Shown here: positions 4,562 to 24,402 of the stretch, in pieces | Layout of the letters: every line of letters starts with the position of its first letter | How positions within the stretch are numbered: position 1 is the stretch's first letter | Source of the DNA: a virus | Lineage: Duplodnaviria > Caudoviricetes | Direction: 5' to 3' (one strand) | IMG/VR virus record: IMGVR_UViG_3300027210_000001 | Span: 17,322 to 81,321 of that record | DNA length: 64,000 nt | The notes under the pieces: model-generated | The model's database searches: none | What the model was told of the DNA's origin: nothing | What the model saw: only the letters and a program-made list of their open reading frames with translations | Made by a program: the position numbers and the translations under genes

Positions 4562-4786
4562 ATGACTGAGTACACCGACGACCAACTCCTAGCACAGGCA
4601 CTCTCCAATCTTGGTGAGTACATACATACTCATGGCACACCTGATTATGTGTTAGTTGATTCAGAAGATCCTCGCAATGAAGATGACTATGATACGTGGA
4701 GTTATGGCACTGAGCCATTACCCCATGACCACACTTGGCAGCATGCATCAATTGATGTAAGCATAAGTCCAAGTGAGCCCGAGTAG
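4562..4786 (+). CDS. hypothetical protein
   Basis: 74-aa acidic ORF; its stop codon lies in the first 10 nt of the tRNA gene. Confidence 0.7.
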   Translation: MTEYTDDQLLAQALSNLGEYIHTHGTPDYVLVDSEDPRNEDDYDTWSYGTEPLPHDHTWQHASIDVSISPSEPE

Positions 4787-4852
4787 CCCAGCGGAAGAGG
4801 CAAGCGACTTAAAATCGCTCCAGCGTGAGTTCGAATCTCACCTCGGGTACCA
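4777..4852 (+). tRNA. trnL-UAA: tRNA-Leu (UAA), 76 nt, short variable loop, encoded CCA
   Basis: Acceptor GCCCGAG/CTCGGGT, anticodon arm AGCGA-CTTAAAA-TCGCT, T arm GTGAG-TTCGAAT-CTCAC, A73, CCA. Confidence 0.93.
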
Positions 4853-8678: not shown

Positions 8679-9809
8679 ATGCATCCCGAAGAAGCCAGGA
8701 AACTTTTCTTTAAAGAAGTTGACAATTGCTATTGGAATCCAAAGCTAAGTATTAAAGTTGCTCCCAATGGGGATCGTACGGTTGTTACATCAGCTGCATT
8801 GCAGAAAAACGAACCACTTGTTGTTTTAAATAAGAACGCATTTTTTAATGCAGAAAAATGTATTGAACATTCTAAAGAAGATATTTCAAGTATTCGTAAA
8901 ACACTTATTATTCCTGCATATCTTTATCAGTTCTACACAAATCATGGGGCCACAGCACTTGATGGTTACGCTTATTACTTCAATGCATTGCCGACGTATG
9001 AATGGTACGAACAAAACCATGAGGTATTTAAAATTTATTTAAAGCTGACTGGAAAACAAAGAAAAGAACTGCATGATAATTTTTACGTGTTTGAGCAAAT
9101 TGATTCTTTCATTGAATGGGCAAGTCAAATCCCTGGGCATACAGTAGATAAAGAACAAGCTATTCGTAGTGTTCTTGCATCTTTAACCAGGACTTGGTCT
9201 TCTGTTGGTTTAGTGCCATGGATTGATTTTTGTAACCATTCATATGAAGGAAGCTTTCTACAGAGTGAGGGAACTACGATTGTAGCTTCTCATGCTTACA
9301 GCAAAGACGAAGAAGTTAACGTAACCTATGGCGTAAAGGATAGCTTGCAGTTATTGAGTGTGTATGGTTATGCAGCAAAAGATAAAACTGTTGGAATTAA
9401 ATTTCCTCCAATCTCTTCTTTTGCTTTGGCCGTTGATTCAGGTCTTCAAAAGTACGCTGACTCTTCTGTGTCTGCCCCATGCTTACTTGGTAAACAGCTA
9501 AGGAATTTTGATTTTCTTCTTTCGCATATGCGTCTTTGTGTATTCGATAAAGTAGATGCTCTTACTTGTTCTGACCCAGAGGAAGCCTGCCAAACTTTTT
9601 TGAATGCTCAGAATGAATTAAAAGCTTTAAAACTTTTTCTACACATGGTCCAAGTAACACAAAAGAATCTTGAAGAGTTAAAAAACAAAACAGAAAAAGC
9701 GCTAGGGAAAATCCCTGAAGTCCTTGAAGAAGATTTTAAAGGTAAAGATGAAGTGTTTAACAATATAACCAAAAGGATTTACAAACACTGGCTTGACTTA
9801 TTGTCTTAG
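8679..9809 (+). CDS. SET-domain methyltransferase, Rubisco-LSMT/SETD3-like architecture
   Basis: LVPWIDFCNHS (SET motif III), EEVNVTYG...LLSVYGY (post-SET YG..YG), helical C-terminal region with NELKAL. Confidence 0.8.
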   Translation: MHPEEARKLFFKEVDNCYWNPKLSIKVAPNGDRTVVTSAALQKNEPLVVLNKNAFFNAEKCIEHSKEDISSIRKTLIIPAYLYQFYTNHGATALDGYAYYFNALPTYEWYEQNHEVFKIYLKLTGKQRKELHDNFYVFEQIDSFIEWASQIPGHTVDKEQAIRSVLASLTRTWSSVGLVPWIDFCNHSYEGSFLQSEGTTIVASHAYSKDEEVNVTYGVKDSLQLLSVYGYAAKDKTVGIKFPPISSFALAVDSGLQKYADSSVSAPCLLGKQLRNFDFLLSHMRLCVFDKVDALTCSDPEEACQTFLNAQNELKALKLFLHMVQVTQKNLEELKNKTEKALGKIPEVLEEDFKGKDEVFNNITKRIYKHWLDLLS

Positions 9810-9815
9810 CCTATC

Positions 9816-9842
9816 CGTCCTAAGCAAGACGTTAAACTGCTT
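9816..9842 (+). promoter_or_regulatory. leader H-type pseudoknot motif, copy 3
   Basis: CGTC/GACG and AAGCA/TGCTT, TTAAAC linker; followed by GCAA and GCAC hairpins. Confidence 0.7.
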
Positions 9843-9882
9843 GCCCCGCAAGGGGTCTGGTAAAGTTCCCGCACGGGAATAT

Positions 9883-9909
9883 GGACCCGAGATGTCCCTA
9901 AACTCATTC
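9883..9909 (+). promoter_or_regulatory. leader H-type pseudoknot motif, copy 4 (GGAC variant)
   Basis: GGAC/GTCC, GAG/CTC, CTAAAC linker; close in sequence to copy 1. Confidence 0.55.
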
Positions 9910-9942
9910 ATTAGTTCCGCTTATCAATCGCATTCAACACCA

Positions 9943-10704
9943 ATGCAACTCCTCAAATTTTCCAACGGCAACGGCAAACTCAAGAATCGTCTGATCTTCT
10001 CGCTGCCTGCTGGCCACTCATGCCCACACGCTGGTGTCTGTAAGACATTTGCTGACCGTGTCACAGGACTCATCACTGACCTGCCCCAGTACACGGGCAC
10101 AGAAGCAGATGAGTTCCGTTGCTTTGCTGCCATGGCAGAGGTGCGGCCCAACGTTCGTGCGGCACGCTGGCACAACTGGGATCTTATCCGTGAGGTCATC
10201 CATTCCAATGGCAACCAAGCCGTGCTGCTTCGTGACTTGATCGACTTGTCACTCACCATGCAAGCACCTAAGGATCTGGTGCGTGTCCATGAGTCTGGTG
10301 ACTTTTGGACTGAGAACTACATGCGGGCTTGGCTAATGGTTGCTGCCCAGCGACCCAAGCAAAAGTTCTATGCCTACACCAAGTCTCTTGGCATGTGGTA
10401 CAACCTGCGTAACCAGATTCCATCCAACTTCTATCTCACCGCATCTTGCGGTGGGACACTCGACTACTTGATCCCCAAGTACAGCGCTGTGTTCCAGCGA
10501 GTTGCTTACGTTGTGTACACAGAAGAACAGGCAGCAGAGCTGGGTCTTGAGATTGATCATTCTGATGAGTTATGCTTGGGTTCTAAGCCATTTGCTCTTT
10601 TGGTTCATGGATCTCAACGAGCAGGATCAGAAGCAAGCCAAGCAATTTCTACACGGAAAAAAGAAGGAGGATTTATTGGGTATGGACGAACCCACAAAAA
10701 ATAA
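9943..10704 (+). CDS. Gp88-family protein
   Basis: FSLPAGHSCPHAGVC...CFA, VRVHESGDF, FYAYTK; likely start MQLLKFS. Confidence 0.8.
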   Translation: MQLLKFSNGNGKLKNRLIFSLPAGHSCPHAGVCKTFADRVTGLITDLPQYTGTEADEFRCFAAMAEVRPNVRAARWHNWDLIREVIHSNGNQAVLLRDLIDLSLTMQAPKDLVRVHESGDFWTENYMRAWLMVAAQRPKQKFYAYTKSLGMWYNLRNQIPSNFYLTASCGGTLDYLIPKYSAVFQRVAYVVYTEEQAAELGLEIDHSDELCLGSKPFALLVHGSQRAGSEASQAISTRKKEGGFIGYGRTHKK

Positions 10705-17245: not shown

Positions 17246-17445
17246 CTAATCAAAAACTAACTATGACTTTGATTGAGAAGCTTGAAGTAGAAGTTATTCA
17301 TGAAGAGGATGGTGGTTGCATTATCCGTGTTCATTGGGACAATGAAGATCCAGATCTTGAAGACTGGACAAACCTTGGTGAAGAAGGACAAAAATCCTTT
17401 ATCATTGATGCATTAACCAACGCACTTGCTTGCTATGTCGATTGA
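17242..17445 (+). CDS. hypothetical protein
   Basis: 67-aa acidic ORF. Confidence 0.7.
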   Translation: MTNQKLTMTLIEKLEVEVIHEEDGGCIIRVHWDNEDPDLEDWTNLGEEGQKSFIIDALTNALACYVD

Positions 17446-23143: not shown

Positions 23144-23218
23144 GCACCTGGGTAGGATTCGAACCTACATCGCCCTGCAGCGCAGCAGCCGTACTATCCA
23201 ATTGTCTCGGACCAGGCG
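23144..23218 (-). tRNA. tRNA-like element B (non-canonical anticodon arm)
   Basis: Acceptor CGCCTGG/CCAGGTG, T arm GTAGG-TTCGAAT-CCTAC, D-loop-like AATTGGATA; anticodon arm CTGC-TGCGCT-GCAG has a 6-nt loop. Confidence 0.6.
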
Positions 23219-23225
23219 GGCAAGA

Positions 23226-23705
23226 TTAACAATTTGCAAATTCTCCAAAATATGTTCTTGCAGCTTTTTCATAGGCAAGACGAGCAAGTAAAGGACACTC
23301 AAATGTTCCTAAATATTTTTGTTTACCGTTTATTCTAATTTGAGCTGTATATTTCCCATTTAAAAGTTTTCTAAATCCTTTACTATTTTTATTTGCATTG
23401 TTTTGAGAACGAGTTGCTTTTCTTAAATTTAAAATAAAATTCTCAGCGGGATTGCGTGATATATGCTCTATTTCTAAATCTCCTGGGTCTTCTCCATGAA
23501 CGTACATCCACGCAATACGATGTGCTTTATATTTTTTACCATCAATCACAAGCAGCAAGTAACCGCAATCATCTAAATTACCTGCTACTTGTCCTGCTTT
23601 ACCTCTTCCTCGTGAAGTTTTTCTAATAAAAACTCCTGTATTTTCATTGTAATCAAACAATTCATGCAACCGTTTTTGTGGGGGAAGTGTAATTGACTTT
23701 GGCAT
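23226..23705 (-). CDS. HNH homing endonuclease with AP2-like C-terminus
   Basis: AHRIAW...IEHISRNPAENFILNLR and YTAQIRINGKQKYLGTF; AT-rich. Confidence 0.88.
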   Translation of the reverse strand: MPKSITLPPQKRLHELFDYNENTGVFIRKTSRGRGKAGQVAGNLDDCGYLLLVIDGKKYKAHRIAWMYVHGEDPGDLEIEHISRNPAENFILNLRKATRSQNNANKNSKGFRKLLNGKYTAQIRINGKQKYLGTFECPLLARLAYEKAARTYFGEFANC

Positions 23706-23735
23706 TTTAAAATATTAAAGAGTAAGCCAGGTGAA

Positions 23736-23806
23736 TCAACCGTGCTGGAATCGAACCAGCTATCTAACTCCCTTGTCGGGGTGTCCTGCCACTGGACTAC
23801 CGGTTG
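23736..23806 (-). tRNA. tRNA-like element A (non-canonical anticodon arm)
   Basis: Acceptor CAACCG/CGGTTG, T8-A9, D arm GTCC-AGTGGCA-GGAC, T arm GCTGG-TTCGATT-CCAGC; anticodon arm only CCC-CGACAA-GGG. Confidence 0.7.
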
Positions 23807-23811
23807 AGTGA

Positions 23812-24057
23812 CCCCCAGGTTTGTGCATCATCCTTAAACCATATTGTTGGCGCCAACAAAATGGTCTATGTATAGGAGCTAAGCATAGGGGGTGTTACTG
23901 ATTCGTCGCGCTTGCCAAGTGGGTCGAGGGCGCACCAGGGAATCAATCTGCGAAGGTAATTAAACCTCCGGCCTAGAAACCCAGGACTTCGATGATGGAT
24001 CAGGTGTATCGCCTTCTAGGCTATCTGCCTAACGCGCACAGGGACCTGGCCTCTATC
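23812..24057 (-). ncRNA. unidentified multi-helix structured RNA (~245 nt)
   Basis: No ORF; closing helices CCAGGT/ACCTGG and TGTGC/GCACA enclose at least five internal helices; extended -10 promoter upstream. Confidence 0.7.
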
Positions 24058-24064
24058 ACTCAGA

Positions 24065-24073
24065 ATTATAACA
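24065..24073 (-). promoter_or_regulatory. extended -10 promoter TGTTATAAT
   Basis: Perfect TGnTATAAT ~7 nt upstream of the structured RNA. Confidence 0.7.
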
Positions 24074-24089
24074 AACTTATTTAATGTTT

Positions 24090-24377
24090 TTACCATGTAG
24101 GTGCACCGGGTTTACCTTTAACTTTGCCACCGCCGCCGCCAGAGCTAGGTTTGTTAATTGAAGGGGTAGCAGAGCCTTTACCTCTGCCACCGCTGCTAGA
24201 GCTAGGTTTGTTAATTGAAGGGGTAGCAGAGCCTTTACCTCTGCCACCGCTGCTAGAGCTAGGTTTGTTAATTGAAGGGGTAGCAGAGCCTTTACCTTTA
24301 CCTTTGCCGCCGCCACCAGAGCTGGGTTTATTGATTGAAGGTTTGCCAGGGCGGCCACCAAAATTGTCGCGTGTCAT
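24090..24377 (-). CDS. Gly/Lys/Ser-rich repeat protein
   Basis: Start MTRDNF; 19-aa unit GSATPSINKPSSSSGGRGK; TAGAAT -10 box at 24396-24401. Confidence 0.7.
   Translation of the reverse strand: MTRDNFGGRPGKPSINKPSSGGGGKGKGKGSATPSINKPSSSSGGRGKGSATPSINKPSSSSGGRGKGSATPSINKPSSGGGGGKVKGKPGAPTW
24141..24341. repeat. 57-bp tandem repeat (3 units plus a diverged partial)
   Basis: Units begin at 24141, 24198, 24255; diverged partial at 24318. Confidence 0.9.
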
Positions 24378-24402
24378 GTTTATGTTTAAAAACATATTCT
24401 AA

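Follow-up and report, generated by a model that had tools for sequence, protein, structure and literature searches.

Introduction

The abiF RNA is encoded in cis with AbiF, a HEPN RNase of the Abi_2 family, which it binds and neutralises; it is active in trans as well, and AbiF itself processes its hairpin RNA (PMC12373285, PMC12737573). Orphan or decoy copies are not mentioned in the paper on AbiF of C. difficile, and a literature search retrieved no study of abiF copies that lack the toxin. An abiF small RNA (sRNA) of a cyanophage was listed from an Rfam search in the paper on S-CREM1, where no function is proposed for it (PMC9964418). A phage-made mimic of an antitoxin RNA is known from phage PhiTE, whose pseudo-ToxI defeats the ToxIN system (PMC3475682). 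Here we describe a locus at positions 23,144 to 24,073 (minus strand) of a 64,000-nt stretch of phage DNA, termed the window below, which covers positions 17,322 to 81,321 of the 81-kb virus record IMGVR_UViG_3300027210_000001. On balance we lean towards reading this locus as a small-RNA anti-defence operon of an S-EIVl-like Synechococcus phage, in which an abiF hairpin without a toxin, freed by tRNA-processing enzymes, would silence the AbiF of the host.

RNA ends can also be set by tRNA-shaped elements, as in MALAT1/mascRNA-type processing, where tRNA-linked RNAs are released by RNase P and RNase Z. Species 1 and 2 of phage T4 (rnaC, rnaD) are stable non-decoding RNAs of a tRNA cluster, which are co-transcribed with the tRNAs and matured by tRNA-processing enzymes. 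The first-pass annotation of the window, made from the letters alone, had seen a promoter, a structured RNA of about 245 nt, two tRNA-like elements (A and B) and an HNH gene between them, and had proposed an undescribed system in which A and B are punctuation marks for the cutting of the transcript. The closest cultured relative at the locus is Synechococcus phage S-EIVl, which has the promoter, the leader RNA, A and B in the same layout, without the HNH gene.

Results

An abiF-type hairpin forms the 3′ module of the leader

Rfam gave nothing in the region at gathering score; with a cut-off of E ≤10 there was nothing for the leader, A or B except for a weak match to tRNA-Sec (21 bits, below threshold). 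The Rfam family RF03085, with a gathering score of 37 bits, matches a 37-nt stretch just before A in two sister phages, L009 (53.1 bits) and L022 (49.7 bits); both matches occupy the exact position of the window hairpin, 3–4 nt from A. Model R3 comprised 30 hairpins of hosts and phages, with the window and its twin left out, and was applied to the 64-kb window with search filters off. It retrieved the hairpin with 36.8 bits (E 2e-7), the next best match reaching 9.7 bits. Both stems and the CAAAC loop were matched, and a 45-nt insertion was placed in the terminal loop. We thus assign the 3′ module of the leader, as its sequence indicates, to the abiF motif (RF03085).

In the window hairpin, an outer stem of six positions (five pairs and a U-U) is combined with a bulged A, an inner stem of UGC/GCA and an internal loop that reads CAAACC; the terminal loop holds an extra hairpin of 45 nt (23877-23833). 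Intermediate forms of the loop occur in phages L061, L348, L350 and L296. In alignment A3, which holds 32 hairpins including that of the window, 96.5% of the cells are paired, and six of nine pairs stay paired after changes on both sides.

RF03085 also scores above the cut-off in three of five large myovirus-type records, which together with the positional homologues reach 47–53 bits. S-CREM1 (OP535465) has RF03085 at 10531-10567 (51.6 bits) and element A at 9965-10036. According to Table 4 of the S-CREM1 paper (PMC9964418), the order within 800 nt (9745-10567) is wcaG, A, manA and abiF, A being unannotated there. Such cyanophage tRNA regions look like arrays of small structured RNAs. In L323 (~9345-9376) a stripped-down hairpin, AACACCCGCCAAGCGGGUCACUC, with the abiF flanks and stem and the loop gone, stands directly before a B element.

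The first-pass view of a wholly undescribed system does not hold, since this module is covered by a known Rfam family.

Near-identical hairpins precede Abi_2 genes in Cyanobiaceae

Of 301 Cyanobiaceae genomes sampled, 15 have an Abi_2 match above the Pfam cut-off. Every leader examined has the hairpin upstream of Abi_2, at a distance of at most about 140 nt from the match to this family; in L214 the start codon follows about 20 nt after the hairpin. The host Abi_2 protein matches AbiD in PADLOC (1.7e-39). The flanks AACA...UCACUC are common to host and phage hairpins: the host RNA reads AACA-CCCCCUAGGC...GCCCAAACCUGGGGG-UCACUC and the window AACA-CCCCCUAUGC...GCACAAACCUGGGGG-UCACUC. The host hairpins, too, carry a small extra hairpin in the loop. 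When leader and A were compared by blastn with 401 Cyanobiaceae genomes, the sole match was the 3′ half of the hairpin (22/23 nt), located upstream of a host Abi_2 gene.

Abi_2 was not found in the record of the window or in 10 other phage records, including S-EIVl, S-PM2, S-RIM8 and a complete 247-kb genome; four of these 10 are rated complete by CheckV. Whereas the host copies lie in leaders of Abi_2/AbiF genes, the window hairpin does not. The phage thus carries a look-alike without the toxin, and the toxin is present in the host lineage, as expected for an antitoxin mimic; this correspondence extends no further than the host family, Cyanobiaceae.

The hairpin is linked to tRNAs and tRNA mimics

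An ARAGORN-called tRNA or tRNA mimic follows 2–12 nt downstream of 50 of the 57 distinct cyanophage hairpins, namely tRNA-Arg(UCU) in 24 cases, copies of A in 12 and tRNA-Gly in six, among others. Three of the remaining seven hairpins have copies of A behind them that ARAGORN missed. The mimic counts are ARAGORN calls, and the remaining followers were named by eye. L220, L221, L257 and L278 have A first, then the hairpin and then a tRNA, and 8 nt separate A from the hairpin in some loci. In a sample selected by the hairpin core only, a tRNA lies directly behind 37 of 88 hairpins among the matches listed. The others, as judged by eye, precede B-type elements, an A-like variant, a third minimal mimic, interrupted-looking tRNA-Arg-like genes, U runs of terminators or AbiF-like open reading frames (ORFs). 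A B-type element is found directly behind the abiF hairpin in L454 and L480.

This arrangement gives strong comparative support to the punctuation proposed by the first-pass annotation, since a discrete hairpin stands 2–12 nt before a tRNA or mimic, and sometimes between A and a tRNA; the cutting itself, by RNase P, would still be a prediction. The linkage could also mean that the phage hairpin is a leader of tRNA precursors, which serves stability, processing or termination and is unrelated to AbiF. Indeed, the hairpin is almost always joined to the 5′ side of tRNA genes, and a U run behind it would end transcripts in some phages. Its loop and bulge, however, have the letters that the Rfam consensus shows to be conserved among AbiF-linked hairpins throughout bacteria, and its outer stem and flanks are near-identical to the hairpins before Abi_2 genes of the likely host family, for which a pure processing signal would have no need. 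We consider such a leader function quite unlikely.

Two further kinds of element were seen behind abiF hairpins. In L395, L396, L398, L452, L476 and L251, tRNA-Arg-like genes right after the hairpin look interrupted soon past the start of the anticodon loop (...CUGCCUUAAACAUAAA...) and receive no ARAGORN call; the interruption may be an intron. In other IMG/VR phages (L385, L390, L412, L428, L446, L461) the third kind of mimic consists of an acceptor stem, one internal hairpin and a T arm, with no D arm.

Element A is a tRNA-shaped RNA with a fixed pentaloop

ARAGORN reports 23807-23735 as 'tRNA-???', a tRNA of unknown type, with a 2-nt anticodon; the only Rfam match is the weak one to tRNA-Sec. 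Its 5′ end at 23806, as predicted by the first-pass annotation, agrees with canonical numbering. Six Watson-Crick acceptor pairs and a conserved G7-A66 are followed by U8, a D arm and a T arm. In place of the anticodon arm, A has a covarying stem of 4–5 bp (CCC/GGG, GCA/UGC, GCG/CGC, GUG/CAC), a bulged A and an almost invariant GACAA pentaloop. A thus has the acceptor, D and T arms of a cloverleaf; it lacks the 7-nt loop with U33 and has no match to RF00005, for which ≥29 bits are required. The earlier observation that neither element forms a canonical 7-nt anticodon loop was borne out, with 5 nt (GACAA) in A and 3–4 nt in B.

The A family was collected by a scan anchored on the D arm rather than on the anticodon arm, which avoids a bias toward the invariant-looking arm. 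More than 100 distinct A sequences were recovered from T4-like and S-EIVl-like cyanophages. A is present and unannotated in S-PM2, S-RIM8, S-RIM32, S-CREM1, S-SZBM1, DSL-LC03 and S-EIVl. In alignment A1 (46 diverse members) 96.8% of the cells are paired and 12 of 20 pairs changed on both sides; slid controls stayed below 47%. Covariation is found in three of the four stems (acceptor, T and anticodon-arm), and the D arm, the bulged A and the GACAA loop are nearly invariant. The commonest variant of the loop in the sample has GAU in place of GAC, an Asp codon; this is an unexplained lead, as is the loop of P22 boxB, which consists of the same five letters GACAA.

That A and B are decaying tRNA pseudogenes, or that A is an odd decoding tRNA, might be suggested by the ARAGORN call of an unknown tRNA type and by the nearest host genes, which are tRNA-Gly and tRNA-Arg. 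The pairing of 97–100% of the cells with many compensatory changes, and a loop that is invariant across distant phage lineages, show conservation instead of random decay and largely refute a pseudogene origin. A 5-nt loop without U33 is unable to present an anticodon, as follows from established tRNA structure. Both versions are extremely unlikely.

Effector functions deserve more weight. As non-cleavable tRNA look-alikes, A and B might titrate a host protein that binds tRNAs, such as an anticodon nuclease or another tRNA-targeting defence, in the manner of the decoys that the first-pass annotation had considered as an alternative. They might also recruit a phage protein via the GACAA loop. 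In either case, processing would be a by-product. Such a role would fit the near-invariance of D arm, bulged A and loop beside freely covarying acceptor, T and anticodon-arm stems, the wide distribution of the family in both groups of cyanophages, the occurrence of A without an abiF hairpin in S-PM2 and S-RIM8, and the several unrelated kinds of tRNA mimic behind abiF hairpins. On the other side, a search of 151 Cyanobiaceae genomes retrieved no RNA of this shape, and we know of no binding partner of A or B. Effector functions as the main purpose of A and B are possible, if doubtful, and they are compatible with the proposed role of the hairpin. As A occurs in hairpin-free phages, it must have a role of its own; clearly, A and B also act in a sequence-specific way.

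In L056 (2999-3077, minus strand) the 5′ half of A is fused to the 3′ half of another tRNA. The 17-mer GGACACCCCGACAAGGG is also found in a non-tRNA hairpin context (ACAGCC...GGCUGU) in L041, L064, L069 and L076, which may be due to chance or to a related loop motif.

Element B and the HNH gene

B has a 7-bp acceptor stem, an unpaired D-like region of 21 nt, a central arm of 8 bp with a loop of 3–4 nt, and a T arm; a D stem is absent. The B family, with 12 aligned members plus versions with a long arm, is smaller than the A family. In alignment A2, which contains these 12 members, 100% of the cells are paired and five pairs changed on both sides, in few lineages. When the models R1 (of A) and R2 (of B) were used to search the 151 Cyanobiaceae genomes, only ordinary tRNA-Gly(UCC) and tRNA-Arg(UCU) were retrieved and no host RNA resembling A or B. 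Therefore A and B do not copy a host antitoxin, and the view of A or B as a copy of a tRNA-shaped host antitoxin was dropped. A split tRNA and a transfer-messenger RNA (tmRNA) were rejected as well; neither ARAGORN nor Rfam found a tmRNA.

In relatives, B begins 2–3 nt past A (...GGUUGAUU-CACCUGG-UCCGAG...). In the window, CACCTGG, which corresponds to the 5′ acceptor strand of B, is followed by 508 nt carrying the HNH gene, after which B restarts with CGCCTGG at 23218; this start of B occurs naturally in L029. No relative has an HNH homologue at the site between A and B. With its HNH_3 and AP2 domains and its sporadic insertion, the gene has, by sequence, the features of a free-standing HNH homing endonuclease, and its presence at the start of B is due to a recent homing-endonuclease invasion that left B intact. 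A group I intron carrying the HNH gene was rejected, as the non-coding flanks are too short, with 21 nt ahead of the start codon and 7 nt behind the stop codon. The order of the HNH gene and B, and the 7 nt between them, agree with the first-pass coordinates.

The leader is a mosaic of modules

All features of the locus are compiled in Table 1.

Table 1 Features of the locus and their positions in the window
Feature	Position	Strand	Basis or occurrence
Extended -10 promoter box TGTTATAAT	24065..24073	-	Sequence; putative transcription start near 24058
Module M1 (GAUAGAGG...CCAUC), long irregular hairpin with variable interior	23996..24058	-	Full, shortened or absent among sister phages
Module M2a, AAGUCC and two short hairpins	23946..23992	-	Kept in 11 loci
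Module M2b (...CCUGGUGCGCC...GGCAAGCGCG...GAAUCAGUAACA)	23893..23945	-	Some relatives only: L048, L007, L028, partly L061; variant in L044/L006
abiF-type hairpin (AbiF antitoxin RNA look-alike)	23812..23892	-	Model R3, sister homologues, covariation
Linker UCACU between abiF-type hairpin and A	23807..23811	-	UCAC(UC) likewise after host hairpins
tRNA-shaped RNA A	23736..23806	-	ARAGORN 23807-23735; family alignment A1; R1 85.6 bits
CACCTGG, leftover 5′ acceptor strand of B	23727..23733	-	Start of B in relatives
HNH-AP2 homing-endonuclease gene (159 aa), between A and B	23226..23705	-	Pfam HNH_3 6e-11 and AP2; phrog_99 1e-54
tRNA-shaped RNA B	23144..23218	-	Alignment A2; R2 94.9 bits

The promoter box was recognised correctly by the first-pass annotation: a TGTnTAtAAT box lies 7–10 nt ahead of the first RNA module in every sister locus. 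A simple sigma-70 -35/-10 consensus scan made no call at the box because a -35 hexamer is absent. The stretch from 23706 to 24076 contains no ORF of at least 40 aa on either strand, as had been claimed. The predicted fold of the 255-nt leader has -85 kcal/mol (z = -2.0).

Among 16 related loci, the -10 box and A are kept in all, and the combinations of modules between them differ. M1 and M2 have no Rfam family match. Modules of the GAUAGAGG type are also found 3′ of A in tRNA clusters of the myovirus type. M2a is present in the window, L006, L007, L009, L022, L028, L035, L044, L047, L061 and L245, often just 5′ of the abiF hairpin, and four of its 11 predicted pairs stay paired after two-sided changes in these 11 loci. 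In L045, L066 and L020, A follows directly after the promoter with no modules between.

The first-pass annotation had taken the leader, of about 250 nt, for one large structured RNA with a single function. The long closing helix in the minimum-energy fold and the presence of one promoter only would agree with such an RNA. M1, M2a, M2b and the loop insertion are, however, present, absent or swapped independently among close relatives, and A may even stand straight after the promoter; a single 245-nt RNA is therefore very unlikely. What remains of the claim is an ORF-free region with a stable predicted fold, and comparison of the sister loci indicates that separable modules in a mosaic arrangement, rather than one conserved RNA, make up the leader.

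A self-contained unit was seen in loci of the myovirus type (L008, L030, L217, L223, L239 and many others; 60 nt upstream of the abiF hairpin). It starts with a promoter of the TATAAT type and a hairpin that has a conserved loop GUCCAAAC and a covarying stem; (A)UAAGUCC, the abiF hairpin, UCUCUU and tRNA-Arg(UCU) follow in this order. TAAGTCC was considered as a processing signal and rejected, as it is not enriched in the window. The sole ordinary tRNA of the window, tRNA-Leu(UAA) at 4763-4852 (plus strand), has no abiF hairpin upstream and is preceded by AUAAGUCC, a word that is not enriched in the window.

Upstream of the promoter, an ORF of 101 aa (24090-24395, minus strand) encodes KGKGSATPSINKPSSSSGGRG-like units in three tandem repeats of ~60 nt that are nearly identical. 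No Pfam or PHROG match was obtained for this ORF, which is preceded by a promoter-like site of its own (24425-24396).

Discussion

We propose that transcription from one promoter would yield a series of independent modules: two to three hairpins, the toxin-less abiF RNA, A, the invading HNH gene, B and protein-coding genes. RNase P and the enzymes of tRNA 3′-end formation would recognise the acceptor/T-arm shape of A and B and cut the precursor, so that the abiF hairpin is released with a defined UCAC 3′ tail. AbiF processes its own RNA in the host; a phage without AbiF would, by contrast, obtain this 3′ end through RNase P, acting on the tRNA shape next to the hairpin. The freed hairpin may then bind the host AbiF, an Abi_2/AbiD-F HEPN RNase, and hold it inactive during infection. 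We infer from the near-identity to the host leaders, the absence of AbiF from the phage records and the linkage to tRNA shapes that RNase P cuts the precursor and that the hairpin binds AbiF and counters the defence.

Several observations weigh against this proposal. The hairpin of the window itself has no match to RF03085 even at E ≤10 and thus stays below the gathering score; cmscan misses it because 45 nt are inserted in the terminal loop. The loop letters of the window copy (CUUAGCU...AUGAU) are not those of the host hairpins or of the Rfam consensus, and with an interrupted terminal loop and deviating letters its binding to AbiF is not assured. AbiF was found in only ~5% of the sampled Cyanobiaceae. 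Furthermore, as A exists in phages without the hairpin (S-PM2, S-RIM8) and ordinary tRNAs occupy its position elsewhere, punctuation leaves the invariant D arm, the bulged A and GACAA unexplained.

A more far-reaching idea would join the abiF hairpin and the non-decoding mimics into one device. The hairpin would fill the antitoxin site of AbiF, and the mimic, with its uncuttable GACAA or tetraloop cap, would block the substrate site of a tRNA-cleaving HEPN nuclease; A would then represent a new class of tRNA-scaffolded, protein-binding effector RNAs of T4-like and S-EIVl-like cyanophages. We regard this as unlikely.

Should the hairpin disarm AbiF, the mimicking of type III antitoxin RNAs would be in common use among cyanophages of marine and fresh waters and not confined to one Pectobacterium phage, and the mimics would be delivered through tRNA gene arrays. 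A is an overlooked family of tRNA-shaped RNAs with a fixed GACAA loop in the well-studied phages S-PM2 and S-RIM8, and the unrelated mimics that recur behind abiF hairpins may explain the purpose of many odd phage tRNAs. All parts are small and testable in existing culturable phage-host pairs.

With MALAT1/mascRNA the locus would share a tRNA-shaped element directly downstream that sets the 3′ end of the upstream RNA. The setting here is a bacterial one, that of a phage, the mimics are conserved families with sequence-specific features, and cleavage is predicted only. Like T4 species 1 and 2, A and B are small non-decoding phage RNAs; they differ in being full tRNA shapes. The A loop has five letters in common with the GNRA-like, protein-binding pentaloop of lambdoid boxB; this is a resemblance in shape only, and there is no N-like protein. 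B resembles the tRNA-like domain of tmRNA, in shape only, by its acceptor stem, T arm, unpaired D region and long central helix, but it has no tag reading frame and no G3-U70 pair.

RF03085/AbiFr/RCd22 of C. difficile has the outer stem, the bulged A, the NGC/GCN′ inner stem and the CAAAY internal loop in common with the window hairpin, whose stem and flanks are near-identical to the cyanobacterial copies. It differs in that the phage record has no AbiF gene, that a 45-nt hairpin is inserted in the loop of the window copy, and that a tRNA mimic stands where the start codon of the toxin would be. The abiF sRNA of S-CREM1 belongs to the same Rfam family and likewise lies in a cyanophage tRNA region with A nearby; the missing toxin, the tRNA linkage and the A family are not remarked on in that paper (PMC9964418). 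Pseudo-ToxI of PhiTE is, like the window hairpin, a phage look-alike of a type III antitoxin RNA without a toxin, which would silence an abortive-infection RNase of the host (PMC3475682). There, however, ToxN is not a HEPN protein, the repeat units are cut by the toxin, and escape was shown at the bench, whereas here it is predicted. What the window adds to these systems is a cyanobacterial host counterpart, the variant with an expanded loop, the A and B families and a quantified link between the hairpin and tRNAs.

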